Source: Thermoanaerobaculia bacterium (GTDB taxonomy: Bacteria > Acidobacteriota > Thermoanaerobaculia > Multivoradales > UBA5704). Taken from it: a stretch of 64,000 nucleotides of DNA. The notes beneath the pieces are model-generated. The model was not told where the DNA came from. It did not search any database and saw nothing but the letters and a program-made list of their open reading frames with translations. Numbering within the stretch: the first letter of the stretch is position 1; each line of letters begins with the position of its first letter. The position numbers were made by a program, and so were the translations under genes. Of this stretch, positions 11,805-31,351 are shown piece by piece. The stretch is from contig JBDSHF010000028.1 of assembly GCA_039918595.1 (NCBI GenBank), forward strand, positions 5,370-69,369, read 5' to 3'.

Positions 11805-11813
11805 AGCTGCCTC

Positions 11814-12062: not shown

Positions 12063-12065
12063 TCG

Positions 12066-12662: not shown

Positions 12663-12689
12663 AACACCCCGCTTCAATAGCGGGGTGTT
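12663..12689 (-). terminator. Stem-loop aacaccccgc/gcggggtgtt after recombinase 1; the U-tract is weak.
   Basis: 10-bp perfect stem with a 7-nt loop, between the recombinase stop (12710) and the next operon. Confidence 0.4.
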
Positions 12690-12709
12690 AGCAGCAGGAG
12701 AGTGAACGA

Positions 12710-14668: not shown

Positions 14669-15280
14669 ACCATACAACTTTCACAAGCGGTGAAAAATCA
14701 CCGCAACCTGCCGCCGGATTTTTGGTTTGACTTAGAGAGCCAGGGCATCAGTGCGGCTGTCATTCACTCCCGCCTCATCGGGTGGGACGAGGAGCACGTG
14801 ACCATTCCGATCGTCTCGCGGGATCGGAAAGTTATCGGCTTCGAATATGCGACGTTTGATGAAAACGGCCGGCTGGTAACAATGCCGCAGGAAGGACCCG
14901 GACCATACCTCTATGGAGAGCCGGTCCTCAATGTCAACCCACAGGAGGTCGTTTTGACTGAGGGCGTAACGGAGTCCTTGATCCTCTCAAGCCACGGATT
15001 CAATGCGCTTTCGGCAACCGGCGACGGTCTTTCATTCCGCACCGAATGGGCGCCCGTCCTTCAGAAGGTCCCGAACGTCTTTCTCTGCTTCAAGCGCGCG
15101 AGCGAAAGCATTCAGGCGGCGCTCGGCATTCGCGAGCTGGTGCCGCACGTCCGGATCGTGACGCTTCCTCCCGAGGTCGGTCAGGGAGGCGGGCTCTACG
15201 AGTTCTTCGTGGAGCTTGAAGCGACGACGGAGGACTTTCGGCAGCTCCTCAAGCGAGCTGCCACTTCTTCCGATGCCTGA
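14669..15280 (+). CDS. Toprim-like (DnaG-primase-type) domain protein; the acidic DxD motif appears replaced.
   Basis: VVLTEGVTESLILSSHGFNALSATGDG...VFLCFKRASESIQAALGIRELVPHVRIVTLP parallels the Toprim consensus vivEGymD..l...G..n.va.lGT...vvl.fDgDeaG, but with KRA at the DxD position. Confidence 0.55.
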   Translation, partial: TIQLSQAVKNHRNLPPDFWFDLESQGISAAVIHSRLIGWDEEHVTIPIVSRDRKVIGFEYATFDENGRLVTMPQEGPGPYLYGEPVLNVNPQEVVLTEGVTESLILSSHGFNALSATGDGLSFRTEWAPVLQKVPNVFLCFKRASESIQAALGIRELVPHVRIVTLPPEVGQGGGLYEFFVELEATTEDFRQLLKRAATSSDA

Positions 15281-16652
15281 TCCTCGCCCAGAGAAGAAGC
15301 AGTTCCGGCCGGTCGTGTCCTTGACCCTGCCTACCGGTGAAATGCTCGAAACGGTATTCGACCCCGCCGCTCCGGCGACGGGGTTTATTGTGTTCGATGG
15401 CAAGAAGTGGAGAAGCGAGCGAAAGGTGGAGCTTCCGGGAGGTGTGACCCTTGTCCCGTACTCGGCAGAGAACAACCTCATCACGCATCGCGTAGTCCTG
15501 TTTCCTTCCGCGCCAGAGGAATACGGCTCCGAGGAGGAGCTGTTCGCCGACGTGCGCTCCTTCATCCATCGCTACGTGGATCTCTCCGATGGCTTCGAGG
15601 AAGTTTCCACCGCATACGTGCTCTTCTCTTGGGTCTATGACGCCTTCAACGAGGTGCCGTACCTGCGCGTGCGCGGCGACTACGGCTCGGGCAAATCGCG
15701 CTTTCTCCTCACCGTGGGGTCCCTCTGCTACAAGCCGATCTTCGCCTCGGGCGCCTCGACGGTCTCTCCGATCTTCCGCATCCTCGACGCCGTGCAAGGG
15801 ACGCTTGTCGTGGATGAGGGAGACTTCCGGGCTTCGGACGAAAAGGCCGAAATCATCAAGATCTTGAACAACGGCAACGCCAAGGGCTTCCCGGTCCTCC
15901 GAAGCGAGCAGACACCCGCGAAGGAGTTCAACCCCCGGGCCTTTCACGTCTTCGGCCCTAAGCTCGTGGCGACGCGGAACCTCTTCGATGACCGGGCGCT
16001 TGAGAGCCGTTGCCTCTCCGAGGAGATGGGTACGCGGCCTCTGCGGCCCGACATCTCCATCAACCTGCCGGAAGCCTTCGAGGAAGAGGCCCGGACTCTC
16101 CGAAACAAGCTCCTCCTCTATCGGCTGCGGACACGGGCGAGCCGCCGGCCGCTTGCCGCTGCGCCTCCGGGGCTTGAGCCGCGCCTCTCGCAGATCCTCT
16201 TGCCGCTTCTCTCTACGGCACCCTCAGAGGAGACGCGAGCGCGCCTCCTCGCGCTTGCGAAACGCTCGGGAGAGGTCATCTCGACCGAGCGGGCCATGGC
16301 GATGGAGGCCGAGGTGCTCGCCATCCTCTACGAGCTGCGGGAGGAGAAGGTCCCGCTCGCGGTTATAGAGATCGCCCAGAGATTCGCGAAGCGCCACGCC
16401 GCCGAGTATGAGTACGCGGTGACGCCCCGCTGGATCGGATCGATTTTACGGAGGAAGCTCATGTTGAACCCCCAGAAGCGCGGGGGCACCTTCACCATCC
16501 CCGCATCCGAGTACCCGAAGCTCGCCCGCCTTTTCGAGAAATACAGCGTGGGGCGCCAGGACATCGGGGACATTGGGGATGTTCAACCGGGAGAGGAGCG
16601 CGATGGCACAAGCGCGGAATCACAAGAGTCCTCGGGCTCCGTGTCCCTGTAG
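15273..16652 (+). CDS. P-loop NTPase of mobile-element primase/helicase type (D5-N/DUF3631-like).
   Basis: Walker A GDYGSGKS and Walker-B-like LVVDEGD. Start trimmed to MPDPRPEKK. Directly follows the Toprim-like gene. Confidence 0.6.
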   Translation: MPDPRPEKKQFRPVVSLTLPTGEMLETVFDPAAPATGFIVFDGKKWRSERKVELPGGVTLVPYSAENNLITHRVVLFPSAPEEYGSEEELFADVRSFIHRYVDLSDGFEEVSTAYVLFSWVYDAFNEVPYLRVRGDYGSGKSRFLLTVGSLCYKPIFASGASTVSPIFRILDAVQGTLVVDEGDFRASDEKAEIIKILNNGNAKGFPVLRSEQTPAKEFNPRAFHVFGPKLVATRNLFDDRALESRCLSEEMGTRPLRPDISINLPEAFEEEARTLRNKLLLYRLRTRASRRPLAAAPPGLEPRLSQILLPLLSTAPSEETRARLLALAKRSGEVISTERAMAMEAEVLAILYELREEKVPLAVIEIAQRFAKRHAAEYEYAVTPRWIGSILRRKLMLNPQKRGGTFTIPASEYPKLARLFEKYSVGRQDIGDIGDVQPGEERDGTSAESQESSGSVSL

Positions 16653-16748
16653 AACGTCCCCAACGTCCTGATATGCCCTTGGAAAACCTGCCGACCCCGG
16701 CAGGTTATTGCGTCTTGTATTTGACATACTGTCAAGTATATTGCTGCG

Positions 16749-17108
16749 GTGGCTATGACATTCATACCATTACAGAACTATCTCCGTACCTACCGCAGGC
16801 GCAGTTTTCTCTCGCAGGACGAGGTTGCTTTCCTTTTGGGCGCAAAGACCGGGACACGGGTCACCCGCCATGAGGGAGCTAACCGGATTCCGAAGATGGA
16901 GACGGCGCTTGGCTACGAAGTGCTGTTCGGCGTTCCCTTGCGCGAACTGTTCGCAAGCGAGGCGCACAAGGTCGAAACCATTATCAGACAGCGTGTGCCC
17001 GAGCTGATCCGGGAGGTCGAGGAGAAGGGCGAAAGCAGAGAGAAGCTTTCCTTTCTCCGAAGCCTTTCCGAACGGCTCGCAAAGCATCATGAGAACACTT
17101 GCAATTGA
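16749..17108 (+). CDS. XRE-family HTH regulator.
   Basis: RRSFLSQDEVAFLLGAKTGTRVTRHEGANRIPKMETALGYEVLFGVPLRELF. Confidence 0.6.
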   Translation: MAMTFIPLQNYLRTYRRRSFLSQDEVAFLLGAKTGTRVTRHEGANRIPKMETALGYEVLFGVPLRELFASEAHKVETIIRQRVPELIREVEEKGESREKLSFLRSLSERLAKHHENTCN

Positions 17109-17571
17109 CCCTACTACGTCCGGCTTCGGCTTCGTGGTCCTCGAAGGAAGCGAGCGCCTGGTTGATTGGGGCCTCGGGCGACTGGAAAAGCCCGAGGATA
17201 CCCTCTTCCTGAAGCGGATCGAAAAGCTTCTTGACCGCGCAGCACCGCAGCTCCTTGTCCTTGAGGACATGGAGGACTCGCGCCGCGGCAAGAGGGCTAT
17301 CGCCTGGACGCGGCTTGCACAGATGTGCGCTGCGAAGCGCGGCATCAGGGTGGAGAGAATCGGCCGCGCGGAAGTGTCAGAGCGCTTTGCTTCCTCGGGA
17401 AAGTCGAGATGGGAGGTCGGCCTTGCGATCTCGCGCTTCTTCCCGGAGCTCGCCCCGAGCCTTCCGAAGAAACGGCGTATCTGGGAGAGCGAGGACCGGC
17501 GCATGACGATCTTCACGGCCGCCTCCTTTGCCTTGACCTTCCTGCGTCGAGCGGATCGAAGTAGAGAGTAG
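17089..17571 (+). CDS. RuvC/RNase-H-like fold protein (160 aa). Possible Holliday-junction-resolvase-like protein with partly degenerate catalytic residues.
   Basis: N-terminal LAIDPTTSGFGFVVLEG resembles the RuvC iLGIDPGsr.tGyav motif. LLVLEDMED supplies the second acidic residue. The C-terminal DxxD region is not evident. The start overlaps the upstream HTH gene by 20 nt. Confidence 0.45.
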   Translation: MRTLAIDPTTSGFGFVVLEGSERLVDWGLGRLEKPEDTLFLKRIEKLLDRAAPQLLVLEDMEDSRRGKRAIAWTRLAQMCAAKRGIRVERIGRAEVSERFASSGKSRWEVGLAISRFFPELAPSLPKKRRIWESEDRRMTIFTAASFALTFLRRADRSRE

Positions 17572-17675
17572 CTAGCCTAGCGGTAGGCAAATCAACATCA
17601 TGTCTTTACGGAGAGGACACGGCACAAAGCTCCTCGGGTAACCTACCGGGGAGCTTTGGCGTACCCGACAGATAC

Positions 17676-18890
17676 GTGCGTCTTTGGAAGACGGGAGGAG
17701 ACGGGCACGATACGCCGATGCAATCCGACAACGACATCACCTATTTTGCCCGCATTAATCACCGCAACAAGGGGACGCCTTTCGGCATCCGGAGAGCCGA
17801 CCGCCGCACCCACATGTACGTCATCGGGAAGACCGGCACCGGGAAGTCAACGCTCTTGAAAACCCTCGCACTCCACGACATAGAACACGGCGAAGGGCTT
17901 GCATTGTTCGATCCGCACGGGGATCTTGCGGAGGAGATCGTATCGCTCGTGCCTGCGAACAGACGCGCGGATCTCATCTACCTCAACGTGCCGGATCGTT
18001 CCTTCGTCTGGCACTTCAACCCCTTTGCCGGCATTCCGGAAGAGAAGCACGCTCTTGCGGTGGCGGGCATGGTCGAGGTGTTCAAGAAGCTTTGGCCGGA
18101 CGAATGGGGGCCGCGTCTGGAGCATCTCCTCCGAAACGTGGTCTTCACGCTCCTCGCGGCCGGGGGCAACTTGGGCGACGTGCCCCGCCTGCTGTCTGAC
18201 AAGGATTATAGGAACGCAGCGGTGCGCCGGGTTACGAATGGGATGGTCCGGGAGTTCTGGGAGAAGGAGTATGCCGGGTACTCGCCCGCCTTCCGGGCGG
18301 TGGTGACGGCGCCACTCCAGAACAAGCTCGGAGCGTTCCTCACGGACCCCTTGCTCCACTTGATCCTTACCGGCGAGCGCAGCTCCTTCGACCTCAGGCA
18401 GCTCATGGACGGGGGGAAGATCCTCATCGTCAACCTCGCCAAGGGAAGGATCGGGGAGGGGCCGGCAACGCTCCTGGGGTCGCTCCTGGTATCGCACCTC
18501 TCCCTGGCAGCGCTTGAGCGTGCGGACCGGCCCCAGGAGGAGCGGAGGGACTTCTACCTCTACCTGGACGAATTCCACACCTTCGCCACGCTGACGCTCG
18601 CCACCATGCTCTCTGAACTCCGGAAGTACCGGCTAAACCTCATCCTGGCCCACCAGTATCTCTCCCAGTTGGAGACGGAGATCCGGGATGCGGTCTTCGG
18701 GAACGTGGGGACATTCATCGCCTTCCGGGTGGGGGCCTTGGACGCGTCGACCGTTGCCCGGGAGCTGGCGCCGAAGTTCGAGGCGGAGGATCTCCTGTCC
18801 CTGCCGAACTTCTCTGTTTACCTGCGGCTCATGATCCGGGGGGAGCCGTCCAAGCCGTTTAGTGCTGTCAGTTGTGCACCACTGTCTTGA
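17676..18890 (+). CDS. P-loop ATPase of the FtsK/HerA/VirD4 (T4SS coupling-protein-like, DUF87/TraD) superfamily; no TM segment.
   Basis: HMYVIGKTGTGKSTLLKTLALHDIEHGEGLALFDPHGD Walker A. FYLYLDEFHTFAT Walker B. RKYRLNLILAHQYLSQL. Paralog of the ATPase domain of the ORF at 25642. Confidence 0.8.
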   Translation: MRLWKTGGDGHDTPMQSDNDITYFARINHRNKGTPFGIRRADRRTHMYVIGKTGTGKSTLLKTLALHDIEHGEGLALFDPHGDLAEEIVSLVPANRRADLIYLNVPDRSFVWHFNPFAGIPEEKHALAVAGMVEVFKKLWPDEWGPRLEHLLRNVVFTLLAAGGNLGDVPRLLSDKDYRNAAVRRVTNGMVREFWEKEYAGYSPAFRAVVTAPLQNKLGAFLTDPLLHLILTGERSSFDLRQLMDGGKILIVNLAKGRIGEGPATLLGSLLVSHLSLAALERADRPQEERRDFYLYLDEFHTFATLTLATMLSELRKYRLNLILAHQYLSQLETEIRDAVFGNVGTFIAFRVGALDASTVARELAPKFEAEDLLSLPNFSVYLRLMIRGEPSKPFSAVSCAPLS

Positions 18891-18919
18891 CGCATCTGAT
18901 AAAGGCATGCGATAGTGAT

Positions 18920-19879
18920 GCCATGGCTAAACAAATCGCGGCCCGCTCTCAGGTGACGAGTCCTCACAAGCGTGATTGGCCCTTGGCTATTATTGTATTG
19001 TTCTTTGTCTTTATTTCAGGTTTCACTTTGTCAGCTCAGCCCGCAAGGAAGACTCTGTACACGAGCCAAGATGCCAAAATCGACGAACTGAAGTGTTCAT
19101 CCAAAGACAAGATTTTTCTACCTATTCTTCCGAAAAAGTCAATTTACGGAAAGGTGATCGAACCTGAAGATGTCCTACGCTCGGCGCCTCCTTCGAATCT
19201 TGCAAGTGATGCGGATGAATCTAGGAATTTAGTAGGATATTCGGGACCCTATTACAACGTGGAGGAGCTGACTGGAAATGTCGCCGTGCTCGAAAGGACT
19301 TTATATAACTGGCCGACTAATAATTGGCATGTAACAGGGTTGCTTCGAAATCAAACATGCATGGACATTCGAGTCTCGTCCATAACCGCCCACCTTATCG
19401 GGCCAAGCGGTAAGGAAGTGCGCATTGAAACTGCTACCGTTCCTATTAGTGATTTGAGACCGGGTGAGCCGGCCCCTTTTGATCTAAGTTCTCCAATCCC
19501 AAGAGAGAACGTTGAGCGCGTGGAATGGCAGATTGGATACGCAACAACGACAGAATCGCCCGTTCGGACTTTCTCATTTCTGGTATATCAGTCACGCCAG
19601 ATCACAAGTTCCTCGTACCTGCTTTTCGGCAGTATCCAGAACCTAGGGAGTTCCAGTGCGAGGGGAACTCACATTGTGGCGGCCTGGCTAGATAGTAGCG
19701 GCAGGGTTCGCTATGTAGCATCACCTCTGATTCAACTGGCGACCGGTCCATTGAGTCGAAGAAATAAAATAAATTTGGTGGGCAACGATTTTGAAGATTT
19801 CGTCTTTTCCGCTAATGATCCGCTGCTAGCATCAACGTTGAGTCAGGCAAACGTCGCAATCTGGGGTGTTGCAAATTGA
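18920..19879 (+). CDS. Membrane-anchored (N-terminal TM) periplasmic protein, low GC.
   Basis: WPLAIIVLFFVFISGFTL TM anchor. Its stop overlaps the start of the giant ORF (TTGA). Confidence 0.55.
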   Translation, partial: AMAKQIAARSQVTSPHKRDWPLAIIVLFFVFISGFTLSAQPARKTLYTSQDAKIDELKCSSKDKIFLPILPKKSIYGKVIEPEDVLRSAPPSNLASDADESRNLVGYSGPYYNVEELTGNVAVLERTLYNWPTNNWHVTGLLRNQTCMDIRVSSITAHLIGPSGKEVRIETATVPISDLRPGEPAPFDLSSPIPRENVERVEWQIGYATTTESPVRTFSFLVYQSRQITSSSYLLFGSIQNLGSSSARGTHIVAAWLDSSGRVRYVASPLIQLATGPLSRRNKINLVGNDFEDFVFSANDPLLASTLSQANVAIWGVAN

Positions 19880-22800
19880 AATATTCAGCCTGGGCCTTAT
19901 CAGTGATCGTCCTAATTCTCTCGGGAGAAGGACAAGCGGCAGCGCATGACTTTGGCAGTATACCCTATGACGATGTGGTCTACGCGGCCCAAGTCTATAA
20001 TCAATGCAGGGATACTCTCCCGACTGACAAATTGGTTGCTTACATGCTCGCGCCGACATGGCGAGAATTAACCAATGGCAATACCAATCTAACGCCATCC
20101 CCTATGACATTGGGCAGAGGGGATAACGATTTGGATCTATATCCAGATGGTCAGTCCGGCGCAACTGCTCCGCACCGTCGCGCTTTTTGGCACCCGGGTA
20201 TTGGTCTCTGGCAACTCGATGATATCGGTCTTGGAAAAGACATTAGCACAGAGAAATTCAACTCAAGAGACGCGGCTCAGGTTGCAGCTACCATAATCTC
20301 AACTCGATATTGTAAATCGCCAACAGCTGCGTATATATATGGAGGTATCTGGATTGCTTGTGGGGCGGATGGGAGTCTTTGTCAGGATATTGTCAACCAA
20401 CTCTACAACCCTAATGGCCCTCCAGCGTATACAGTTGGTCGCGACAATAGTGTTGGTCGGTACGGTGGTTCGCAGTTGCATACGTGTAAACTAGCGGGCG
20501 ACACTAGGTATTTCGATTGCCTATATGTTAAGCCTGCCAACCCAGATGGAACACGAGCCAACGCCGAGGGTACTATATCAAGTTGGATTTACCAGCCATT
20601 AGAGGGTCTTTATCCCCCCAATACACCGTCTCCGCTAACAATGCCATTTTATGTCTATCGAGAGGATGCAACTGGAGGGGGATTCGAGTGGCGATATTGG
20701 CTAGCTGCTGATACAGGCTTCGGAAAAGATTATGCTGCTAGACGAACCTATGGCGCCAACTCTCGGGCAGGTCTCCATTGGGTTTCAGATGCGTCAACCA
20801 GCTTAGCTCTCTGTGATGTTACCCTTACACGCGGTGCCTGTGGAGGTATTCCCCAGGCACCTTCGATATCCAACATAGCACAGCTATCGTACGACGGGTC
20901 GCCACTTTCAGTCGGCGCTATTACACAAGCTGGAACCGTTATACTCCGAGGTACACTTGCTGGTTCTCAGGGTCAACAAGTACGAATTGAGCTAGAGGTT
21001 CGGAGAATCTCTGACCCGTTCTTAGGTGAACCGAATTACCTTGGAAACTACGTCACCAGTGGGAGCGTAAGCAAGTGTGTCACGGGACTGCAAGACGCCA
21101 AATATCATTGGCAGGCACGAGTGAGGAGCGATAGTGGACAGTTCAGTCAATGGCTTCAGTTCGGGGGAAACTCTGAAGCCAGTCCTGATTTCGAGGTACA
21201 GGCTAATAGATGTGCTATTTGCACTGCGTCTGGCGCATCTGCTGTGGTCACAAAGTATGGCCGTATTGGAATATCCTGTGGCGTACCCCTGGCTGTAGAA
21301 CTTGCAGCGTCTGTCAACAATGGTATTACCCTGCTTAATGGTGTAAGTCTGACGGCATCGGTGAGTGGTTCGGAAACCGGCACTATAAATTACACGTTTT
21401 ATTGTAATCGTCCCGATGGAGGAATTGATGTTAGATCTGGATGGATTGCCAAGTACGATGGGATTTCGGCGAATCCGAAAACAGCATATGACGTATGTGA
21501 CTATGTTGGGCCGGGTATTTATACTGCAAAGGTGATCGCTGAGCGTGGATCAAGCGCAGCTGAATCACGGACACTCATCACCGTTTCGGCACCTTCAACG
21601 CAAACTCCTTCGGTTACAACGAGTGGCTCGGCAAATGTGACCCAAAGTAGTGCGACTCTCAGTTTATCTGTTAATCCAAACGGGTCTGATACTTCAGCCT
21701 GGTTTGATTGGGGGACGAGCACCTCCTTCTGCTGTAACACGAGTCAGCAGACAGTCGCGGCTAGTTCGGGAGCGTCACTGCTTAGTATGACCGTAGGCGC
21801 CCTTCAATGCGACACAACCTACTACTTCCGAGCCCACGCACAAAGTGTAGGCGGAGAAGCCACAGGAAGCACCTTGTCATTCCGAACGGGTGCATGTGGC
21901 AACGGCCCCCAAACCGTTCAACTTGTGCCTGATCCAGGCTTCGAGCAAGGAAACAATGCGTGGTGGGTAGCGAGCCCAGCGTTCTATATCGATCATGCTC
22001 CCACCTTCCCGAATCCGCGCAATGGAAGTTACTACGCTTTCCTTTCCACGTCCAACGGCTCGGCGGGCAACAATTTGCAGGGCGGCGTGATATCGCCCCA
22101 AGTCACCATTCCTTCAAACGCAAGCGGAGCTGAACTGCGCTTCTGGTATAGCGTTTCGACACAGGAGACGAGTACATCAATCTTTGATACCCTCAAGGCT
22201 TACCTAGTTAAGCCGGGGAATCAAGCGACACTCTTTGCAACCATCTCAAACTTGGACAATTCTGGCACAACGTATAGAGAGAAGGTTGTCGGCATTCCCT
22301 CCTCATTTTTCGGCGGCCCGGTGCAGATCTTTTTCTCTGGCGCAACAGACGGTAGCTTGCCTACCGTCTTCCGCGTAGACGATGTGACGCTTTCTGCCTT
22401 CATCCCTGCGACGGCCGGTTCGCCTGTCGTTAGCACGGGGTCTGTTGACCAAATTACCTCGTCTAGCGGACGGCTCAGCATGACTGTCAACCCCAACGGT
22501 GCCGACACTCAGGTGTGGTTTGATATAGAAACGAACAATCCGCCGAACTCTGAGACAGAGCACGTAGCTATAGGAACCGGGCAGCAGGCCGAGGGCGTTA
22601 GCATTAGTGTATTCGGCTTGCGATGCGACACGACCTACTACTATCGGGCTGATGCCGTCAATTCGTACGGATCACAGCTAGGCTCTGTGAGTTCTTTTAG
22701 AACCAGTACTTGTCCCGTTCAAGCCCCCTCAGTATCAACCACTGTTGCTGACAGTATAACGTCCACCTCTGCGCGTTTGGTTGGGAGCGTCAATCCAAAC

Positions 22801-24789
22801 GGCTTCTCAACAACGGTTTGGTTCGCTTGGGGAACCGATACGACGCTCGGAAATTCTACGCCTAGCCAGAACGTCGGCAGTGGTAATTCTTCAGTGAGCT
22901 TCGCGGCTACACTCAATAACCTTCAGTGCGGCACTACCTACTACTACCGTGCCAAGGGGCAGAACAGCGGCGGGCAGACATCCGGTGCGCTCTACAACGT
23001 AACAACTTCCCCTTGCAGCCAAATACCCGTTATAACGATAACGGCAAGCGATCCGACTGCGACTGAAAATCCCATGACTACGGGGGAGTTTCTCATCCAG
23101 CGAACAGGAGATCTTTCTAGTGCGTTATCGGTGGCATACACCGTGGGAGGAACCGCCATCGTTGGGGTAGATCACACGCTTGGAGGCGGGAGCGTGACCA
23201 TCCCCTCTGGATCAGCCTCGACTACTTTGACCGTCTTTCCGATCGACGATTCACTGGTCGAACCAGATGAGACCGTCGTTGTGACGCTTCAGCCGCAGTC
23301 CCAATATACAGTTGGTACCCCAAGCGGTGCCACTGTTACAATTACGAGTGATGATACGGGATGTGCCTTAAGTGTCATAAGGCCGCAAGGTGGAGAGGTG
23401 TGGACAAAAGGATCACCTCATACCGTTCAGTGGAGTGCGAACTCTGATTGCGTGGACTTTGCCTTTATTCTATACAGAAATGGTAACTTTGATGGCTACC
23501 TGACAGGTTCTCTGTCCGGGAGCCAATTTAGCTGGACACCTCCGGCGTGGCTCGTACCAAGTCCCGGGCTGCAGATTGATGTTGTAGGATTCAACGCTGA
23601 TGGCACTGGTGTTTCGGCGCGTTCAAACAACTTTACGCTTATCAACCCTGCGGTCCTTCCCGCAGTCATATTCCAGGACACTGTAGAGACTAACGATGAG
23701 TTCAACTACTACTCCGAAGGATGGGGAGTGACAAATTTCACCTCGCACAGCCCCACGCATTCGCGCGCGGATAGTCCTGCTTTCTACGGCAACAACACGA
23801 ACAGCTCACTTATAACACCTAAAATCGATGTTAGTAGCCGCACCTCCCTCTCTCTCAGCTTCTGGCATCGCTTTAGTCTTGCGGACTTCGACTTCGTGAA
23901 CGTCTGGGTTAAGACCGATCAAGGAGATTGGATCTTCTTGCAGGGCTTTACCGGAATCCAATCTGACTGGCGACAGGTCACAATTAACCTGAACGCTTTC
24001 CTTGGCCAACCGTCTGTTCAGGTCGCTTTTCAGATAGTATCTGATGATGCTCTGACTGCCGATGGCTGGTATATCGACGACATCGTATTGAGTGGGGCGA
24101 GTGACACTAATAAAATTTTCTCTAATGGTTTTGAGTCCGGTGATCTTTCGGCATGGTTGGTGGCGCCGCCGAGCGACGGAAGCATCGTTTCTGTTTTGGA
24201 GCAGGGTGTCCCAGGGCAACCCGGAAAGGATATTTGGACAACGAGCAACTATTCATTTGCGCCGGGCGGCAACACGCCGGGAGGTGGGTTGGACAACGAA
24301 GAGCTTGTAGTAGGAGGATGGGGCGACAATTACTACAGCCTCCTTGAGTTCAATCTCGCAGGGCTTCCAAGTCACGCATCCTCGGCAGTGCTCAAGCTCT
24401 TTTGCTACCGGACTCGTGCTACCGAAACGATTGGCATGTATGTCGAGCGTATAACCCAGATATGGGATTGGCGTACCCAAGGCACCGGCCGAGATAGGGA
24501 GAGGTTATGGTGGGCAGACCAACCGCAGTCACTCAATTGGATAGGCTTGCCGGTCACGAAGCCGACGGTAGGGCAGTGGTACTCAATCGACATCACGGAT
24601 CTCTATAACGCATGGCAGAACGGATCTGTGCCAAACTACGGCATCAAGCTCACACCGGTTGATAATGGTAACGAGTGGAGCGAGTTTTACAGCGCAAACT
24701 ACTCTGATCCGGCCTTCCGGCCTCGGCTCGTAATTCGGCCGGATCAATCTACCGTTAAACGTTCTCCTCTATCTAGGAAGCCACGGTAG
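19876..24789 (+). CDS. Giant secreted multidomain surface protein (1637 aa): signal peptide, three or more Fn3-like repeats, a Calx-beta domain, a Kre9/KNH-like Ser/Thr-rich domain, two MAM/ConA-like domains and a C-terminal DNRLRE-like domain.
   Basis: TTG start coupled to the upstream gene. Signal peptide MKYSAWALSVIVLILSGEGQAAA. Repeated VNPNG.DT..WF.WGT...TTYY(F/Y)RA units. Calx-beta segment ITASDPTATENPMTTGEFLIQRTG...DETVVVTLQP. Two ...(V/I)DD(V/I)VL motifs typical of MAM domains. C-terminal DNEELVVGGWGDNYYSLLEFNLAGLP. GC is lower than the host. Confidence 0.8.
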   Translation: MKYSAWALSVIVLILSGEGQAAAHDFGSIPYDDVVYAAQVYNQCRDTLPTDKLVAYMLAPTWRELTNGNTNLTPSPMTLGRGDNDLDLYPDGQSGATAPHRRAFWHPGIGLWQLDDIGLGKDISTEKFNSRDAAQVAATIISTRYCKSPTAAYIYGGIWIACGADGSLCQDIVNQLYNPNGPPAYTVGRDNSVGRYGGSQLHTCKLAGDTRYFDCLYVKPANPDGTRANAEGTISSWIYQPLEGLYPPNTPSPLTMPFYVYREDATGGGFEWRYWLAADTGFGKDYAARRTYGANSRAGLHWVSDASTSLALCDVTLTRGACGGIPQAPSISNIAQLSYDGSPLSVGAITQAGTVILRGTLAGSQGQQVRIELEVRRISDPFLGEPNYLGNYVTSGSVSKCVTGLQDAKYHWQARVRSDSGQFSQWLQFGGNSEASPDFEVQANRCAICTASGASAVVTKYGRIGISCGVPLAVELAASVNNGITLLNGVSLTASVSGSETGTINYTFYCNRPDGGIDVRSGWIAKYDGISANPKTAYDVCDYVGPGIYTAKVIAERGSSAAESRTLITVSAPSTQTPSVTTSGSANVTQSSATLSLSVNPNGSDTSAWFDWGTSTSFCCNTSQQTVAASSGASLLSMTVGALQCDTTYYFRAHAQSVGGEATGSTLSFRTGACGNGPQTVQLVPDPGFEQGNNAWWVASPAFYIDHAPTFPNPRNGSYYAFLSTSNGSAGNNLQGGVISPQVTIPSNASGAELRFWYSVSTQETSTSIFDTLKAYLVKPGNQATLFATISNLDNSGTTYREKVVGIPSSFFGGPVQIFFSGATDGSLPTVFRVDDVTLSAFIPATAGSPVVSTGSVDQITSSSGRLSMTVNPNGADTQVWFDIETNNPPNSETEHVAIGTGQQAEGVSISVFGLRCDTTYYYRADAVNSYGSQLGSVSSFRTSTCPVQAPSVSTTVADSITSTSARLVGSVNPNGFSTTVWFAWGTDTTLGNSTPSQNVGSGNSSVSFAATLNNLQCGTTYYYRAKGQNSGGQTSGALYNVTTSPCSQIPVITITASDPTATENPMTTGEFLIQRTGDLSSALSVAYTVGGTAIVGVDHTLGGGSVTIPSGSASTTLTVFPIDDSLVEPDETVVVTLQPQSQYTVGTPSGATVTITSDDTGCALSVIRPQGGEVWTKGSPHTVQWSANSDCVDFAFILYRNGNFDGYLTGSLSGSQFSWTPPAWLVPSPGLQIDVVGFNADGTGVSARSNNFTLINPAVLPAVIFQDTVETNDEFNYYSEGWGVTNFTSHSPTHSRADSPAFYGNNTNSSLITPKIDVSSRTSLSLSFWHRFSLADFDFVNVWVKTDQGDWIFLQGFTGIQSDWRQVTINLNAFLGQPSVQVAFQIVSDDALTADGWYIDDIVLSGASDTNKIFSNGFESGDLSAWLVAPPSDGSIVSVLEQGVPGQPGKDIWTTSNYSFAPGGNTPGGGLDNEELVVGGWGDNYYSLLEFNLAGLPSHASSAVLKLFCYRTRATETIGMYVERITQIWDWRTQGTGRDRERLWWADQPQSLNWIGLPVTKPTVGQWYSIDITDLYNAWQNGSVPNYGIKLTPVDNGNEWSEFYSANYSDPAFRPRLVIRPDQSTVKRSPLSRKPR

Positions 24790-24792
24790 GAT

Positions 24793-25635
24793 GTGCTACC
24801 TGGATTGACTGATAAGGAACGGCAAGAGTATGTTCTAAAGTCAAATCTCGATGTCGCAGAATGTAAATTCCTCTATTTGAACTCTCTCCCGGGTCTTGCT
24901 AGTCTCATTCGTACCAACCGAAGTACGGAGGATCCCCGCATGCCCCGACACTCTGACGGAGTAGTGCTGTCCAACTGGCATACCCTCTTCGAGGACTTCT
25001 CGACCTCGACCCAGGACTTCTATGCCGCTGTTGAAGCCGCGATTGCAGACCGGAACCTCCCAGACATCAAACTCTCCCGCGTCTTCTTCAGTGAGGGCGG
25101 CATCGGTTCCGCCAAGCGCGAATACCTCCGCATCGAGCGCCAGCGGATCGTCTTCGACATCTGCTCCGCGCCATACGGCAAGGGGCACTTCTTCTCCTGG
25201 TGGCTTGCCAAGATCCCAGCGAAGTATGGTCTTTTCATCGTTCTCGGTATTGCCCTCGGATGTCTTCCACTCTGTCTCATCTTCCTTGGCATCCTCTTGA
25301 AAATCTTCGAGGGCTCCCTCTTCGGCATGGTCGTCCTTCCCTTCATCTCCCTCCTCGTCATCCCGGCGATCTTCCTTCTCCTCGGTCTCGGCGTCGAGCG
25401 AGGGCTCATCGGCGACGAGGAATGGGTCCTCTCCATCCCCTGGGTCGGATACCTGTACTACGTAGTCTTCAACCCTGTCTCATACTACCGCCTCGACACC
25501 GCCATGATGTTCCGCGACTCGATACGCTCGGCCGTGAACGAGGTCTTGAACGACCTGCGGGAAGAGAAGGGCCTGCGGCTCCTCGGGGACGAGGAACTCC
25601 GGCCCGACGCCGACGAGGGAGAGGCCACGGCGTAG
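24793..25635 (+). CDS. Integral membrane protein (cytoplasmic N-terminal domain plus 2-3 TM helices).
   Basis: Hydrophobic helices LFIVLGIALGCLPLCLIFLGILL and MVVLPFISLLVIPAIFLLLGLGV. Lies 4 nt after the giant ORF. Confidence 0.6.
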   Translation: MLPGLTDKERQEYVLKSNLDVAECKFLYLNSLPGLASLIRTNRSTEDPRMPRHSDGVVLSNWHTLFEDFSTSTQDFYAAVEAAIADRNLPDIKLSRVFFSEGGIGSAKREYLRIERQRIVFDICSAPYGKGHFFSWWLAKIPAKYGLFIVLGIALGCLPLCLIFLGILLKIFEGSLFGMVVLPFISLLVIPAIFLLLGLGVERGLIGDEEWVLSIPWVGYLYYVVFNPVSYYRLDTAMMFRDSIRSAVNEVLNDLREEKGLRLLGDEELRPDADEGEATA

Positions 25636-25641
25636 CGGGGT

Positions 25642-28600
25642 ATGGCGAGCCGGGTTGAGGAGCGCACCCACCATTTCTTCCGGTGGGAACGGCGGGGCCG
25701 CGGACGGCGGAGCTTCCTGTCTCCCGTCTCGCTTGAGCCGCCCTTCACTCCCTTTTGGTTCGTGAAACATGCCGCGCCCGCCCTCGATGACGGCAGGCAT
25801 CACACCTTCTTGTCAGCCTTCCTCGAACGGTTCTCTGGTAAGCGGGAGGCGCCGCCACCTGAGCCCGAGATCGAAGAGCCGGAGGCGGAACCCGGAGACG
25901 AGGGGGAGCCTGTCGAGCTACGGGTCCTCCTGCCGCAGGAGCTTTCCGTCACGGCGGCGCTCTCCGAAGGCTTCCTCAAGAGCCTTGCGGCCGTCCATAC
26001 GCCGCTCTCGCTGGAACTGGTCGGCATAGGCGGAGAGGTGGCGGTTTCCCTCACCAGCCGCAGGACGGCGGTGCCGATCCTCTCCTCCCAACTGCGGGCC
26101 TTCTTCCCGGAGGTACGCCTGGAGGAGGAAGAAGATCTCCTCCTCACTGCCTGGGAGTCGGGAGTGGAGGGTGTCTTCGGCGCCGTCGAGCTTGGCCTGT
26201 CCCGCGAGTTCATGCTACCCCTCGGCCGTCCGCGAAACTTCACGCCCGATCCCTTGACCGCGATCGTGGGAGCGCTTGCGGAGACTGCGCCCGGCGAGGT
26301 TGTCATCGTCCAGGTGCTCTTTCAGGGAGTGCGGTCGCCGTGGGCGGAGAACATCGTGCGGTCGGTGACCACACCCTCCGGCGAGCCCTTCTTCGCTGAC
26401 GCTCCCGAGGTCACCAAGCTTGCCCGCGAGAAAGTATCCGCACCGCTCTTCGCCGTTGCCGTTCGCGTCGTGGCGCGGGGAGCAACCGAGGAGCGGCTGT
26501 GGACGCTTCTCTCGGGTAGCCTTGGCGCGCTCGTGGGCGCAACGAGAGGTGACAACGAACTTGTGCCGCTCGGGACGGATGACAGTACCGAGATCTTGGG
26601 AGACGTGCTCCTGCGCAGGACCCACCGGAGCGGCTTTCTCCTCTCGCTTCCCGAGCTGCTTCCCCTGGTTCACCTTCCGTCGCCCTCGATCCCCGGCATC
26701 GCCCGGGACACCGGCCGCACCAAGCTCCTCCCCGAGGAGGCACAGGAAGGCGGGCTCTTCCTCGGGTACAACGTCCATGCGGGAAGGGAGCGCGAGGCGC
26801 GGCTCTCGACGGACGCGCGCCTCCGCCACGTGCATGTCGTGGGGGCTTCGGGCACCGGCAAGTCAACGCTTCTGGTGTCCATGATCCTCCAGGACATTGC
26901 CGCCGGGCACGGCGTGGGCGTCATCGACCCGCACGGCGATCTCATCGACCACGTGCTCGGCGGGATTCCTGAAAACCGAGCGGCGGACGTAATCCTCTTT
27001 GACCCGGCCGACCCGGAGCATGTCGTCGGCTGGAACATACTCTCCGCGCACTCCGAAGCAGAGAAAGACATGCTCTCCTCGGACCTCGTTGCGGTCTTCC
27101 GCAGGCTTTCGACCTCCTGGGGCGACCAGATGACGGCGGTCCTTGCGGGCGCGATTCTCGCCTTCCTGGAGTCAGAGCGGGGCGGCACGCTCCTCGATCT
27201 GCGGCGGTTCCTCGTGGACCAGGGCTTCCGGCGGGAGTTTCTCGCCACCGTCCGCGACGAGTATGCCCGAGACTTCTGGACGAGAGAGTTTCCGGTGCTC
27301 AAGGGCTCGCCTCAGGCGTCGATCGTGACCCGGCTCGATACGCTTCTCCGGGGCAAGCTCGTGCGCGGGGTGGTGACGGCCAGAGACAAGCCCCTGGACT
27401 TCCGGGGAGTGGTGGACGACCGGCGGATCTTCCTGGCGAAGCTCTCGCAGGGTGCCATCGGCGAGGAGAACGCTGCGCTCCTGGGGTCGCTTCTCGTCTC
27501 GAAGATCCACCAAGTATGCCTTCTGCGGCAGGATCAGGCCGAGGGTTCGCGCCGGCCGTTCTTCCTCTACCTCGACGAGTTCCACAACCTCGCGACGCCC
27601 TCCATGGCGACGCTCTTCTCCGGGGCGCGCAAGTACCGCCTCGGGGTGACCGTCGCGCATCAGGATCTCTACCAGCTCCACGCCTCCGTTCCCGAAGTCG
27701 AACGGGCCGTCCTCGGGAACGCATACACCCGGATCTGCTTCCGCCTCGGCGACGAGGACGCCCGGACCTTATCTGCGGGCTTCTCCTTCTTCACGGCAGA
27801 CGACCTCGGGAACCTCGACACCGGAAGAGCGATCTGCCGGGTGGGCAGGAAGGAGCACGACTTCAACCTCTCCGTCGTGCCGATGGAGCATGGAGACCCT
27901 GAGGCGCATGAAGCGAGGCGCCGGGATGTCCGGGCGCGGTCGCTTGCGAGGTGGGGCGCGCCGCGCTCTGCGGAGCCGCCGGCGGCTCCCGCACCTCCCG
28001 AGAGGCCACGAGCGGAAGCACCGCCACGAGTCGAAGTGCCACTGGCGCAGCCGCAACCCAAACGAGAGACAGCCCCGCCGCCTTCGGCTCCGCCCCCTCT
28101 ACCCGCACAGGTGCAAGCTCCCGAGCCACCTCCGGTCGAACCGCGCCGCCCGGGCAAAGGCGGGCCGGAGCACACGTATCTCCAGGAACTCATCAAGCGG
28201 TGGGGAGAGGAGAAGGGCTTCCGGGCAGTGGTCGAGGAGCAGATTGCGGGCGGCAGGGAAAGCATAGACATCGCCCTCTACCGGGGCGACCTCAAGATCG
28301 CCTGCGAGGTCTCGGTCACGACGCCTCTTGAATATGAGGTCGGGAACGTGGAGAAGTGCCTTGCGGCCGGATTCGGGACGGTGGCGGTCGTGTCTCTCAA
28401 GAAGGCCCGACTCGCGAAGCTCGGAAAGCTCCTCGACGAAGCCATTCCTTCCGAGAGCCGGGCCAAGGTCCACCTATTCACGACGGAGGAGTTGCTCTCA
28501 TGGCTTGAGGGGCAGCCGGTCCACGAGGAGGTGAAAACTGTCAGGGGATGGAAGGTCAAGGTCAAGTACCGCGATCCGGGAGATGACCGCATGAAGCGCG

Positions 28601-28650
28601 TCGCCGAGATCCTGGCCCGGAGTACGAGCGGGCTAGAGAAGGATGGGTAG
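25642..28650 (+). CDS. Large FtsK/HerA/VirD4-like P-loop ATPase (1002 aa) with an N-terminal domain of unknown function, a Pro-rich linker and a C-terminal PD-(D/E)xK/Mrr-Hjc-like nuclease-fold domain.
   Basis: HVHVVGASGTGKSTLLVSMILQDIAAGHGVGVIDPHGD Walker A. FFLYLDEFHNLAT Walker B. RKYRLGVTVAHQDLYQL. Linker PPAAPAPPERPRAEAPP...PPPLPAQVQAPEPPPVEP. C-terminal GEEKGFRAVVEEQIAGGRESIDIALYRGDLKIACEVSVTT fits an E...D...E(V)S restriction-endonuclease-like core. Confidence 0.8.
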   Translation: MASRVEERTHHFFRWERRGRGRRSFLSPVSLEPPFTPFWFVKHAAPALDDGRHHTFLSAFLERFSGKREAPPPEPEIEEPEAEPGDEGEPVELRVLLPQELSVTAALSEGFLKSLAAVHTPLSLELVGIGGEVAVSLTSRRTAVPILSSQLRAFFPEVRLEEEEDLLLTAWESGVEGVFGAVELGLSREFMLPLGRPRNFTPDPLTAIVGALAETAPGEVVIVQVLFQGVRSPWAENIVRSVTTPSGEPFFADAPEVTKLAREKVSAPLFAVAVRVVARGATEERLWTLLSGSLGALVGATRGDNELVPLGTDDSTEILGDVLLRRTHRSGFLLSLPELLPLVHLPSPSIPGIARDTGRTKLLPEEAQEGGLFLGYNVHAGREREARLSTDARLRHVHVVGASGTGKSTLLVSMILQDIAAGHGVGVIDPHGDLIDHVLGGIPENRAADVILFDPADPEHVVGWNILSAHSEAEKDMLSSDLVAVFRRLSTSWGDQMTAVLAGAILAFLESERGGTLLDLRRFLVDQGFRREFLATVRDEYARDFWTREFPVLKGSPQASIVTRLDTLLRGKLVRGVVTARDKPLDFRGVVDDRRIFLAKLSQGAIGEENAALLGSLLVSKIHQVCLLRQDQAEGSRRPFFLYLDEFHNLATPSMATLFSGARKYRLGVTVAHQDLYQLHASVPEVERAVLGNAYTRICFRLGDEDARTLSAGFSFFTADDLGNLDTGRAICRVGRKEHDFNLSVVPMEHGDPEAHEARRRDVRARSLARWGAPRSAEPPAAPAPPERPRAEAPPRVEVPLAQPQPKRETAPPPSAPPPLPAQVQAPEPPPVEPRRPGKGGPEHTYLQELIKRWGEEKGFRAVVEEQIAGGRESIDIALYRGDLKIACEVSVTTPLEYEVGNVEKCLAAGFGTVAVVSLKKARLAKLGKLLDEAIPSESRAKVHLFTTEELLSWLEGQPVHEEVKTVRGWKVKVKYRDPGDDRMKRVAEILARSTSGLEKDG

Positions 28651-28791
28651 GTAGGTACTCTCCGGCGCCGCATCCCGCCACAGGGGCACCTTGTGGCGTC
28701 TTTCCGGCTACCATCGGCGCGCGTACGGTGGGCGAAGAGTGTTCTTCACACCTTCAACCCTCCGCGAGAGCGGATCTCTTTGGAGACAAGG

Positions 28792-30375
28792 ATGATGCGT
28801 CCCCGAACCCCTAACAGCGAAGGCAAACGGGTGGGGCTCTGGATCAGAGTCTCGACCGAAGACCAAGCACGGGGCGAGAGTCCCGAGCACCACGAAGCGC
28901 GCGCCCGGATGTATGCCGAGAGCAAGGACTGGACCGTCATAACGGTCTACCACCTCGAAGGCGTGTCAGGGAAGTCGGTCATGCAGCACCCCGAGGCACA
29001 GCGGATGCTTGCCGATGTCAGGCAAGGGTCGATCTCCGGCCTCATCTTCTCCAAGCTCGGCCGCCTAGCCCGGAACACGACCGAGCTACTGGAGTTTGCC
29101 GCGATCTTCGAGCAGCACGGTGCCGACCTCATTTCCCTCGGCGAGTCGATCGACACCTCCACTCCCGCCGGCCGTCTCTTCTACACCTTGATCGCCGCCA
29201 TGGCGACCTGGGAGCGAGAGGAGATCGCCTCTCGGGTCGCGGCTTCCGTGCCTATCCGGGCCAAGCTCGGGAAGAAGCTCGGCGGAGCCGCCCCCTACGG
29301 CTACGCCTGGAAGGACGGCAAGCTCGCCCCTGAAGAGAAAGAGGCGCCTGTCCGGAAGCTCATGTATGAACTCTTCCGACAGACCAAGCGCGTGCGGACG
29401 GTTGCCCGGCTCTTGAACGAGCAAGGATACCGGACCCGAAACGGAAGCCTCTTCACCCATGTCACGGTGCGGCGCCTCATCCTCGACCCCACCGCTAAGG
29501 GGGTACGCCGCGCCAACTACACCAAGAGCCTGGGTGACGGGAAGAAGTGGAAGCTCAAGCCCGAAAGCGAATGGGTAGAGCTGCCAGTCCCCCCGATCGT
29601 GGACGAAGCGGTCTGGGAATCGTGCGCCTCGATCCTCCGGGAGAGGGCGAACGGCCGCAAGCCCGGTCCCCGGACAGTCCACCTCTTCACTGGCGTTGTC
29701 TTCTGCCATTGTGGGCGGAAGATGTACGTGCCCTCGAACAACCCTAAGTGGATCTGCCAGGGGTGCCACAACAAGATCCCCATTCCGGACCTTGAGGCCG
29801 TCTTCGAAGAACGGCTTCAGGCGCTCGTCTTCTCCCCTGAGCAGTTTGACGTCCACCTTCGGGAAACAGAGGCGACGATCGAGGCAAAGCGGGAGGAGCT
29901 GGCAGTGCTACTGCGGGAAGAAGACTCCGTAAAGGCTGAGTCCGACAAGCTCTACCGCCTCTACCTCGAAGGGGGCCTCCCGGTCCCGGCCTTTCGGGAA
30001 AGGAACGATCCTCTGGAGGAGCGGAAAGAGCAACTGCGGCTCCAGATTCCCCGGCTCAAGGGAGAGATAGACTTCCTCGTGATACGGCAGCTCGGAAGTA
30101 CAGAGACTCTTGTCGAGGCCCAGACCCTCTACGAGAAGTGGGCGATCCTCTCCTTCGGGATCAAGCGGGAGATCGTCGAAACCATCGTGGAGCGGATCGA
30201 CGTCGGGGTGGGCGATGTCGAGATCACCCTCTCTTGCGACATACCCGAGCCCCCCGACTTCCCCCTTTCCCCTGAACTCATGGCAGAAGGGGAACGAATC
30301 TCCAGGGATTCATCGCGGCGAGCAGGGAAAACCGGGCCGGGAAGACCAGCCGGGCGCGGGCCCGCACGACGCTGA
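28792..30375 (+). CDS. Large serine recombinase (integrase) at the element's right end. The last ~25 codons and the stop lie in comM-derived host DNA.
   Basis: [12 protein letters not shown] catalytic serine motif, recombinase domain and zinc ribbon [21 protein letters not shown]. Start trimmed to MMRPRT. The ORF runs across the junction at ~30298. Confidence 0.85.
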
Positions 30376-31351
30376 CGTTCCCCTCTTCGAGCGGCTGGCG
30401 CAGGGCTTCCAGGGTGTCGCGCCGGAATTCCGGGAGCTCGTCGAGGAAGAGGACGCCGTTGTGGGCCAGGCTCGCCTCGCCCGGCCGCGGGTTGCTGCCG
30501 CCGCCGATCATCCCCGCCGTGCTGGTCCCGGTGTGCGGGCTGCGGAACGGCCGCTGGCGCAGCAGCCCCGCCGGCGGCTCCTCGGCCACCAGGGAGTGGA
30601 CCTTGGTGACCGCGATCGACTCCGCCAGGGTGAGCGGCGGCAGGATCCCCGGCAGGCGGCGGGCGAGCATGGTCTTCCCTGAGCCTGGAGGCCCGAGGAA
30701 GAGGAGGTTGTGGCCGCCGGCCGCGGCCACCTCCAGAGCCCGTTTCGCCATCTCCTGCCCCCGCACCTCGGAGAGGTCGGGCGCCCCCATCAGCAACTCA
30801 ATGGAAAAGGGGGGAGCCGGGACGGCCGGCAGCTCCGCCTCACCCGTAAGGTGCTGGACGGCCTCGGCAAGCCCCCGGAGACCGAAGACCGGGACGGCTT
30901 CGAGGGCAGCCGCCTCGGCGGCGTTGGCCGCCGGCAGCAGGACCTCGCGGACTCCCATGCGGCGCCCGAGGTCGGCGATGGCCAGACCGCCGCGCACGGA
31001 GCGGATGGCGCCGTCGAGCCCCAGCTCGCCGCAGATCAGCCGCCCGGCGAGGGCGTCCTGCGGGATCTGCTCGTAGGCCGCGAGCATCGCCAGGGCAATG
31101 GCGAGGTCGAGGTGGTTGCCCTCCTTGCGGAGGTCGGCCGGCGCGAGATTGATGATGATGGACTTGGGTTCCAGGTCGAAGCCGCAGTTTTTGATCGCGG
31201 CGCGCACCCGCTCGCGGCTCTCGCGGACCGCGGCATCGGCAAGTCCCACGATCTGAATCTGCGGGAGTCCGTTCTGGACGTCGACCTCTACCTGGACGGG
31301 GCGTGCTTCGATCCCCCATGGCGTGGCGGTGGTGGCTCTGGCTAGCATCAA
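30298..31351 (-). pseudogene. comM: comM/yifB (Mg-chelatase-like competence ATPase), 3'-truncated by the island insertion.
   Basis: N-terminal Lon-like domain plus AAA domain [21 protein letters not shown]. Identity to the family ends after ...[11 protein letters not shown], where CPCG is expected; the reading frame instead runs into island sequence (WRFVPLLP*). Confidence 0.8.

Follow-up and report, generated by a model that had tools for sequence, protein, structure and literature searches.

The stretch of DNA analyzed here (the window; 64,000 nucleotides, positions 5,370 to 69,369 of contig JBDSHF010000028.1, assembly GCA_039918595.1) derives from a Thermoanaerobaculia bacterium and contains a low-GC island that ends inside the gene comM, directly beside the gene of a large serine recombinase (LSR; also called integrase below). 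The integrase gene (28795..30375, plus strand) encodes 526 amino acids (aa) from ATG 28795 and shows the Pfam domains Resolvase (E 8e-29, profile positions 4-144 of 145, with the catalytic motif IRVSTEDQ) and Recombinase (E 7e-19), the former being the N-terminal resolvase-type catalytic domain by which a serine integrase is recognized. Its open reading frame (ORF) extends from 28693, or from a further ATG at 28792, to 30375 (+); the ATG at 28795 is the likely start, because homologues begin at MRPR. Zn_ribbon_recom was not reported at E ≤ 0.001, the four cysteines of FCHCG...ICQGCH are invariant in the homologue alignment, and some homologues carry PF13408. A faint similarity to CcrB/XisF in NCBIfam stayed under the cut-offs. 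More than 5600 homologues were found at E ≤ 1e-20, the closest of which (P0001, 98% identical) is located in the comM gene of a slightly different host.

On the opposite strand, a comM 5' fragment (30305..31348, minus strand) comprises codons 1-348 of a ComM/YifB gene of ~507 codons and ends with ...LLAAMNP. This truncated frame is the minus-strand ORF 31351..30278, with a likely start at ATG 31348. According to the Pfam scan, it encodes a ChlI domain and a truncated Mg_chelatase domain (profile positions 1-159 of 207), and Mg_chelatase_C is absent from the ORF. The full-length ComM proteins of the closest genomes have 505-511 aa, and the most similar ones were found in a Thermoanaerobaculia metagenome-assembled genome (MAG; 71% identity, over residues 1-349 only) and in a Candidatus Multivorans MAG (64%). 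When four full-length ComM proteins were used as tblastn queries, residues 1-349 alone matched (31348->30302, E 1e-98 to 1e-140), and residues 350-507 had no match across the 64 kb at E ≤ 10; ~159 C-terminal ComM residues are missing from the window. At the position where intact genes encode CPCG, the comM frame of the window reads WRFVPLLP and a stop, and these eight codons with their stop form an element-encoded tail (30278..30304, minus strand).

The window matches intact comM up to ...ATGAATCCCTG, where homology stops. A codon-wise alignment with eight intact comM genes showed ...GCG ATG AAT CCC TG in common, followed by divergence (GAGATTCGTTCC... versus CCCCTGTGG...). An earlier reading of this DNA from its letters alone (the sequence-only reading) had described an element integrated in the 3' end of comM, with the junction at ~30298 and ~25 integrase codons beyond it, and had proposed a comparison with uninterrupted comM of relatives. 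This comparison, taken together with other junctions, yielded attB and a 2-bp crossover, CA/TG. An LSR insertion did emerge from it, between the codons for AAMNP and CPCG, but at codon ~348 of ~507, about two thirds into the gene, and not at its very 3' end; the alignment with intact comM also refined the junction to 30303/30304 and the codons beyond it to 23.

The inferred crossover (30303..30304) reads CA on the integrase strand and TG on the comM strand, where TG opens the Cys codon that follows Pro348. CA are the sole bases common to attB (intact comM), the attL-type junctions (the window and 45 loci), the attR-type junctions (loci L056, L169, L170, and L172), and attP (L085, L088, and L164). 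On the integrase strand, the junctions of the opposite type in L056, L169, L170, and L172 have ...CCGCAGGGGCA in common with antisense comM and then diverge into TTCCTGCGTTGCC.... The element-side arm of attL (30280..30302, plus strand; ATGGCAGAAGGGGAACGAATCTC) lies within the integrase gene, where it encodes MAEGERI(S) and occupies codons 496-503, and the ORF passes on through the crossover. Relatives have kept this arm both as DNA and as the peptide ...ELMAE[RG]ERI. At 12 of its 15 outer positions, the arm matches the reverse complement of the opposite attP arm found in relatives (GGCAGAAGGGGAACG versus GGCAAAAAGGCAACG), which is the dyad symmetry to be expected for the attP of a serine integrase. 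The features that characterize serine-integrase att sites were all found, namely a crossover of 2 bp, dyad symmetry of attP, and a polarity set by the central dinucleotide. In 2-kb windows, the GC content was 49-65% left of ~30300 and 65-71% in most windows to the right, a contrast that supports a foreign element on the left side. Judged by homology, the evidence for comM, the LSR, and their junction is strong and beyond what a chance pattern could give.

The integrase gene has no stop codon before the attachment-site arm, and thus the integrated integrase reads into antisense comM. The host-encoded tail (30304..30375, plus strand) comprises 23 codons and a stop (30373-30375) and corresponds to the comM codons for ...AAMNP, and those upstream of them, translated in antisense. 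This agrees with the sequence-only reading, which had let the integrase frame cross the junction and end in host DNA. In an alignment with the 27 closest homologues, conservation continues to ...SPELMAE[RG]ERI; beyond this point the homologues read hRDSS, hTDSS, or hRGSW, which is the antisense translation of the comM AAMNP codons, and thereafter the tails are unrelated in sequence and differ in length. In relatives, both the length and the sequence of the host-derived tail follow the comM gene of the respective host.

We surveyed 80 metagenome loci carrying integrase relatives at 49-67% identity. In 45 of them, a convergent comM 5' fragment that ends at residue ~348-351 abuts the integrase 3' end, and the window belongs to this class of LSR insertions in comM. 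These 45 loci gave 46 comM matches, and in 44 of them the integrase frame terminates within comM DNA, with host-derived tails ranging from ~6 to >100 codons across the surveyed loci, and several other short contigs carry the same antisense-comM tail. Three loci (L124, L128, and L155) are interrupted at the same comM codon in reverse orientation, so that the comM 3' fragment comes after the integrase and shares its strand, and L128, the one locus of the three whose junction sequence was read, has TG in place of CA at the site centre. A reverse insertion with a TG centre fits the polarity rule of serine integrases, and polarity in this family is, to judge from these junctions, determined by the dinucleotide. 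Four loci are interrupted at another comM site, at residue ~120; an integrase subgroup with the tail ...EELxKSQQAL... (L146, L153, and L157) abuts comM fragments ending at residue ~118-124 and represents this second site within comM. At L082, the locus of a 75%-identical integrase, the adjoining comM fragment (11439-12041) spans only residues ~182-349, as other foreign genes interrupt comM once more at a point further upstream. An 80%-identical integrase with the same att arm adjoins the 3' part of a gene for an MBL-fold (Lactamase_B_2) hydrolase, not comM, at L174 (4560-5033), which looks like a recent retargeting within the subclade of the window's integrase. In a Deltaproteobacteria MAG (L056, 2497-7260), an intact comM is followed by 2.3 kb, a standalone helix-turn-helix (HTH) gene, and a second, near-identical comM 3' fragment; no integrase is present, and the comM 3' end is duplicated around an integrase-less mini-element.

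In six of the 80 loci, comM is not located beside the integrase, and the integrase ORF runs in frame and stop-free past the arm into an extension with two HTH_3 domains of the cI/Cro type. At the joint, ...SSELxxxGQRNF is followed by IPALPFCxIxLK...; the extension comprises 145-166 aa (~150 aa) and the whole protein 636-677 aa. Further fusions through QRNF and IPALPFC are encoded at L163-L167 and in the proteins P0077, P0084, P0086, P0087, P0092, P0246, and P0318, of which P0092 was seen in four independent samples. The fusion genes are flanked on both sides by element DNA coding for TrwB-like ATPases, ArdC, an ImmA-like peptidase, a methylase, and defence-type cargo. Their attP is an inverted repeat of the form GGCAACGCA-N4-CA-N4-TGCGTTGCC with the outer bases ATGGCA.../...TGCCAT. 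It reads GGCAACGCA-ACTT-CA-CTCC-TGCGTTGCC in L085 and shows compensating substitutions in both arms in L092, and in these relatives the whole attP lies within a single ORF. The sequence-only reading had stated that the integrase C-terminus differs between the integrated and the excised form; this is borne out by the relatives, whose unintegrated form has the tandem-HTH extension. The HTH module can be likened to P22 C2, the 434 repressor, SinR, HipB, and the Xre-family regulator of ICEBs1.

A profile of the HTH extension retrieved 1686 proteins. The best 120 of these 1686 are all standalone HTH proteins of 137-288 aa, most of which start at or just ahead of (I)PALPFC. In three of the four such cases with genomic context (L169, L170, and L172), the standalone HTH gene lies divergently beside a comM 3' fragment (residues ~345-507), and L056 has the same junction of HTH gene and comM 3' fragment. 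The clearest pair consists of L164, which carries a fusion, and L172, which carries a standalone HTH gene beside comM 3': their DNA is 86% identical starting exactly at CA, and the same TrwB-like gene follows downstream, whereas to the left of CA L164 continues into the integrase 3' end and L172 into antisense comM (GTAGTAGCCGCACGGA = CPCGYY). Compared with the integrase core of L164, that of the integrated L087 is 80% identical, and those of the fusions L163 and L085 are 79% and 76% identical. Because the core identities interleave in this way, fusion and integrated forms appear to be states of one kind of element and not separate lineages. We conclude that in these relatives attP lies inside one int-HTH gene, which integration into comM splits, and the standalone 'XRE regulators' beside comM 3' fragments are evidently the other half of an integrase gene. 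This split-gene arrangement was established in relatives at 50-62% identity. At least three divergent junction types show an in-frame, stop-free connection of integrase and HTH module. Since the integrated copies demonstrate that a stop at this position does no harm, this recurrence argues for selection on the int-HTH link.

The same tandem-HTH module was also found fused, without the IPALPFC linker, to members of a separate LSR clade (P0297, P0300, P0310, P0314, P0316, and P0322; ...TVTYRFSQPDQxMPLVLPQSYS...), and predicted LSR-HTH fusions extend beyond the comM-targeting family. P0257 (L173) and P0004 (L174), whose tails are not comM antisense, were considered as further attP forms and rejected, since L173 runs into the antisense of a traG-like gene and L174 represents the MBL-fold insertion.

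As the best explanation of the locus as a whole, we regard it as probable that LSR insertion at comM is combined with an int-HTH gene that is split in relatives and with a presumed sensing of the integration state through that split. The island entered comM by LSR recombination between the attP of the element and an attB formed by the conserved codons for AAMNP and CPCG. The reconstructed attP of the window would read GAACGAATCTC-CA- followed by the left end, and the attB of the restored comM would read ...ATGAATCCC-TG-CCC.... In the integrated state, translation continues from the integrase into antisense comM until the first chance stop, and the complete LSR core (catalytic, recombinase, and zinc-ribbon/coiled-coil parts) with its short host tail remains at the comM 5' junction. 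In relatives, the HTH module goes alone to the comM 3' junction, where it lies behind antisense comM and is separated from the int promoter. At the crossover, the window (ATC TC[C A]GG) and the fusions (AAC TT[C A]TA CCT...) share the same codon phase, and therefore we infer that on excision the window's integrase would be joined in frame to IPALPFC... of an HTH module, given a standard arm at the left end. The int-HTH fusion protein would be made only from the circular form, and the split would serve as a physical sensor or record of the integration state. After excision, the repressor-like module would regulate transfer or replication genes of the element or modulate the recombinase. That the split is a real functional switch, with regulation as its most likely use, is a tentative proposal based on gene architecture. 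We offer with similar reserve the wider suggestion of a very large, cross-phylum family of bacterial serine integrases with attP inside an int-(XRE HTH)x2 gene, in which integration into comM would uncouple and excision would rejoin the two parts, providing a protein-level switch acting on directionality, autoregulation, or transfer genes.

The island body (1..30302, with a provisional left limit) was delimited by the GC profile and by Pfam, PHROGs, and PADLOC scans. A degraded tandem-HTH module of the type that marks the far end in integrated relatives is present at 796..1110 (plus strand; tblastn). This copy is disrupted by a stop within the frame and by a frameshift, and no N-terminal third can be detected. 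In tblastn searches with the HTH extensions and the standalone HTH proteins, the best match was P0140, with 45% identity over 63 residues (796-993), and the match was split over two frames with the stop included. The original left end may lie near ~700, eroded and with the comM 3' part lost; or the remnant may be older and the element may continue beyond the window. From the missing comM 3' part, the sequence-only reading had deduced an element of more than 30 kb. The fragment is indeed absent (tblastn), but this size is not secure, given the HTH remnant at 796-1110.

Attempts to define the left end further gave little. A search for leftward extension via the DUF2188 protein (1170-1400) retrieved only one public contig of the same strain, from Logan SRR26386590, which is 100% identical and stops at 1029. 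This contig (L171) has a length of 31.6 kb, is 100% identical over the 10.4 kb compared, and ends within the HTH remnant, which hints at a repeat or a population variant there. Flank synteny gave no assignment of positions 1-700 to host or island, as none of the six flanking proteins had a homologue in the 80 comM loci. Just upstream of the degraded HTH module, a hairpin with a perfect 9-bp stem (AAGGCCGCC tgaagttc GGGCGGCCTT) occupies positions 663-690 and may represent either a terminator or a strongly eroded attR. The segment 663-700 (AAGGCCGCC...GGCGGCCTT) was also inspected as a degenerate attR; by eye, ~11 of 24 bases agree, which is not above chance, and no attR is claimed here.

Several observations weigh against the interpretation of the locus as one half of a functional split gene. 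Among integrases that share ≥70% identity with that of the window, no Int-HTH fusion turned up, and a chimeric query composed of the window's integrase C-terminus and the HTH module of P0140 retrieved only distant or partial fusions (≤42% identity). At L173, which belongs to the window's subclade and has a frameshifted integrase, the frame past the arm enters the antisense of the end of a traG-like gene and no HTH module follows; the 80%-identical integrase of L174 sits in a different target gene. Judging by the range of tail lengths, any C-terminal tail is evidently acceptable to the integrase, whose catalytic and DNA-binding domains all remain intact after the split. One fusion locus, L106, belongs to a 360-kb contig, and hence a small free circle is not in every case the carrier of the unrecombined site. 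Within the window, the second att arm was not found at up to 6 mismatches, apart from one chance match at 39882, and the HTH module is represented only by a pseudogene whose first third is missing.

Part of this evidence would also be explained by incidental read-through, where attP merely overlaps the end of int, the integrase does not require a defined C-terminus, the sequence past the crossover is junk in both states, and the HTH fusions of distant relatives are a separate, lineage-specific trait; the ORF across the window's junction would then be devoid of regulatory meaning. The free variation of tail length and sequence with the host comM, the traG-like antisense in L173, the lack of fusions at ≥70% identity, and the decay of the window's HTH copy next to an intact integrase all suit this explanation. 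It does not predict, however, that in the lack of selection an in-frame, stop-free passage from int to HTH would occur in at least three divergent junction types, that a family-specific HTH remnant would be present in the window's own island, or that its integrase would share the codon phase of the fusions at the crossover, and we consider it rather unlikely. A fixed and decaying island is a quite conceivable alternative, about which we remain cautious: the integration would be old, excision would have been lost with the eroded far end, and the integrase would be a remnant or serve another element. The stop and frameshift in the HTH module at 796-1110, its undetectable N-terminal third and att arm, the absence of the comM 3' fragment from the window, and the composite nature of the island, which includes a second LSR and differs strongly in GC content from region to region, are in line with decay. 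On the other hand, the integrase ORF is intact, as is the attL arm, the 98%-identical integrase P0001 resides in comM of a slightly different host, and the true left end may lie outside the window, in which case the remnant would stem from an older insertion.

Two further explanations concern the relatives and the target gene. It is very improbable that the Int-HTH loci are not the unrecombined form but tandem arrays, assembly chimeras, or an independent lineage with another att site. Tandem prophages formed via att-site recombination are documented in mycobacteria (PMC9934374), L106 is part of a 360-kb contig, and no contig was demonstrated to be circular; yet the fusion was recovered from four independent samples and in many distinct sequences, L164 and L172 cease to be homologous precisely at the CA common to attB and attL, the site has the dyad symmetry of an LSR attP, fusions and integrated copies are intermingled at 75-80% identity, and a tandem array would hold the same attP-type joint anyway. 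We give practically no credence to a comM gene that was cut by a deletion or by a Tn7-like transposon of the AbaR type, with the integrase merely nearby. Tn7-like islands are the classic interrupters of comM in Acinetobacter (PMC11472951), but here the break occurs at the same codon beside the same integrase-encoded arm in 45 unrelated metagenome loci, the complementary junction in four loci, and no Tn7-type genes among the ORFs scanned. A different truncation mechanism, which the sequence-only reading had named as the scenario that would overturn it, is excluded, as dozens of relatives share the conserved junction. LSR insertion at comM with a split int-HTH gene in relatives thus remains our preferred reading.

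Concerning the type of element, the gene directly upstream of the integrase (25642..28650, plus strand) encodes a TrwB/TraD/HerA-like P-loop ATPase of 1002 aa with the Pfam domains TrwB_AAD_bind, T4SS-DNA_transf, and TraG-D_C. This TrwB-like ATPase is a conserved companion of the integrase family, with homologous neighbours in L082, L164, L172, and L163. It matched PADLOC mad8 (E 2e-20) and phrog_5156 (E 8e-43), and a second TrwB/HerA-like ATPase (17676-18890) also matched PADLOC mad8 (E 2e-16). For both ATPases, matches to coupling proteins in NCBIfam were far below the cut-offs, and PADLOC mad8 fits better. Based on these matches, the role of the TrwB-like ATPase may be in transfer or in defence. 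By eye, the C-terminal ~150 aa of the larger one look nuclease-like. Relaxase and type IV secretion genes were absent among the scanned ORFs, and an ArdC-like protein is present. The island does not qualify as a prophage, as the 10 island ORFs compared with PHROGs gave no structural match, except that the TrwB-like protein faintly resembles a terminase ATPase. A search for the excised form in 2.9 million viral contigs yielded one distant integrase relative (48% identity) without context. The best description is an integrative, possibly mobilisable or conjugative element, with tentative class membership.

The island body further encodes, besides a second LSR and the two TrwB-like ATPases, ArdC-like, primase-like, and RuvC-like proteins, TPR proteins, and a surface-type protein of 1637 aa. 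The second LSR (12710-14326, minus strand; 538 aa; Resolvase, Recombinase, and Zn_ribbon_recom) is 23% identical to the integrase at the comM junction and suggests a nested or composite island. It was ruled out as the partner of the HTH remnant by this low identity, its location on the other strand, and a distance of 11 kb. The 1637-aa protein (19876-24789, plus strand) contains MAM, Calx-beta, CBM96, and Ig-like domains and forms a block with 18872-19879 and 24793-25635. With 49-53% GC, far under both island and host, this block is probably a separately acquired cargo within the island.

ComM is a helicase required for efficient natural transformation with heterologous DNA, and its interruption by mobile elements has been discussed as guarding those elements from removal (PMC11472951). 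In the host of the window, natural transformation should drop once the ComM C-terminus is lost. The sequence-only reading had called comM a known hotspot for insertions, and this is consistent with the main text of Durrant et al. (2022), where Mg-chelatase homologues are the most enriched LSR target, hit by 12.4% of the predicted site-specific LSRs, and competence genes are enriched among LSR targets (PMC10083194). The comM elements reported there share the enzyme class and the target gene with the window. That main text refers only to 'typical domain architectures', contains 'HTH' nowhere, and describes neither an integrase frame across attP nor a severed HTH module (PMC10083194). LSR insertion in comM is therefore already known and ordinary, and the split-gene architecture appears to be undescribed for bacterial serine integrases. 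A full-text literature search of incomplete coverage revealed no LSR ORF spanning attP and no int-HTH gene split by integration; an earlier description is possible.

A close architectural parallel is found in the 'suicidal' integrases of the SSV1 type from archaeal viruses and plasmids, which have the att site in their own gene, so that an intact gene exists on the free element only, and which were exclusively archaeal according to a 2021 review (PMC8371274). As in the family described here, the att site lies inside the recombinase's own ORF and integration partitions the gene. However, SSV-type enzymes are tyrosine recombinases in which an N-terminal part is cut from the catalytic part and the enzyme is inactivated (PMC8371274), whereas here the recombinase is a bacterial serine recombinase with all its domains on one side of the crossover, and only the appended HTH module is lost. 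The window family is a functional analogue of the SSV-type integrases and not a member. Integration-dependent immunity of mycobacteriophages, reportedly described by Broussard et al. in 2013, offers a second parallel. In these phages, attP is located in the repressor gene, and integration removes a C-terminal degradation tag (PMC9934374). Both systems have attP in a gene with a repressor-type HTH, a changed C-terminus, a 3' remnant at the other end, and a selected frame across attP; in the immunity systems, however, the repressor is split, the tyrosine integrase is separate, and only a short ssrA-like tag is lost (PMC9934374). In contrast, the split ORF here is an integrase-HTH fusion from which a whole DNA-binding module is detached, and the family does not belong to the integration-dependent immunity systems.

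An extra polypeptide at the C-terminus of a serine integrase also occurs in engineered fusions of integrases with recombination directionality factors, in which, according to Olorunniji et al. (2017), the C-terminal partner alters the att pairs that are recombined (PMC5737554). Those fusions are artificial and the partner is a known directionality factor; the natural HTH module is not known to be one. A fused excision factor on the circular form would counteract integration. In Tn916-type elements, genes at one end reach a promoter at the other end only after circularisation. The coupling in Tn916 is transcriptional across the joint, whereas here the joint lies inside a single reading frame and coupling would occur at the protein level.

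Among the known targets of site-specific serine integrases, comM is the most frequent one, and losing it is considered to benefit mobile elements through reduced transformation, which would protect them. Integrase genes annotated in integrated members of this family have tails that stem from the host and differ in length, and a recombinase taken from such an integrated copy for genome engineering may be missing a natural C-terminal domain. Control of directionality and maintenance in serine-integrase elements is still largely known only via unrelated, hard-to-predict directionality factors. If the split is functional, it would provide a simple mechanism for a serine-integrase element to sense its integration, and would represent the first bacterial serine-recombinase counterpart both of the archaeal self-partitioning integrases and of integration-dependent immunity.

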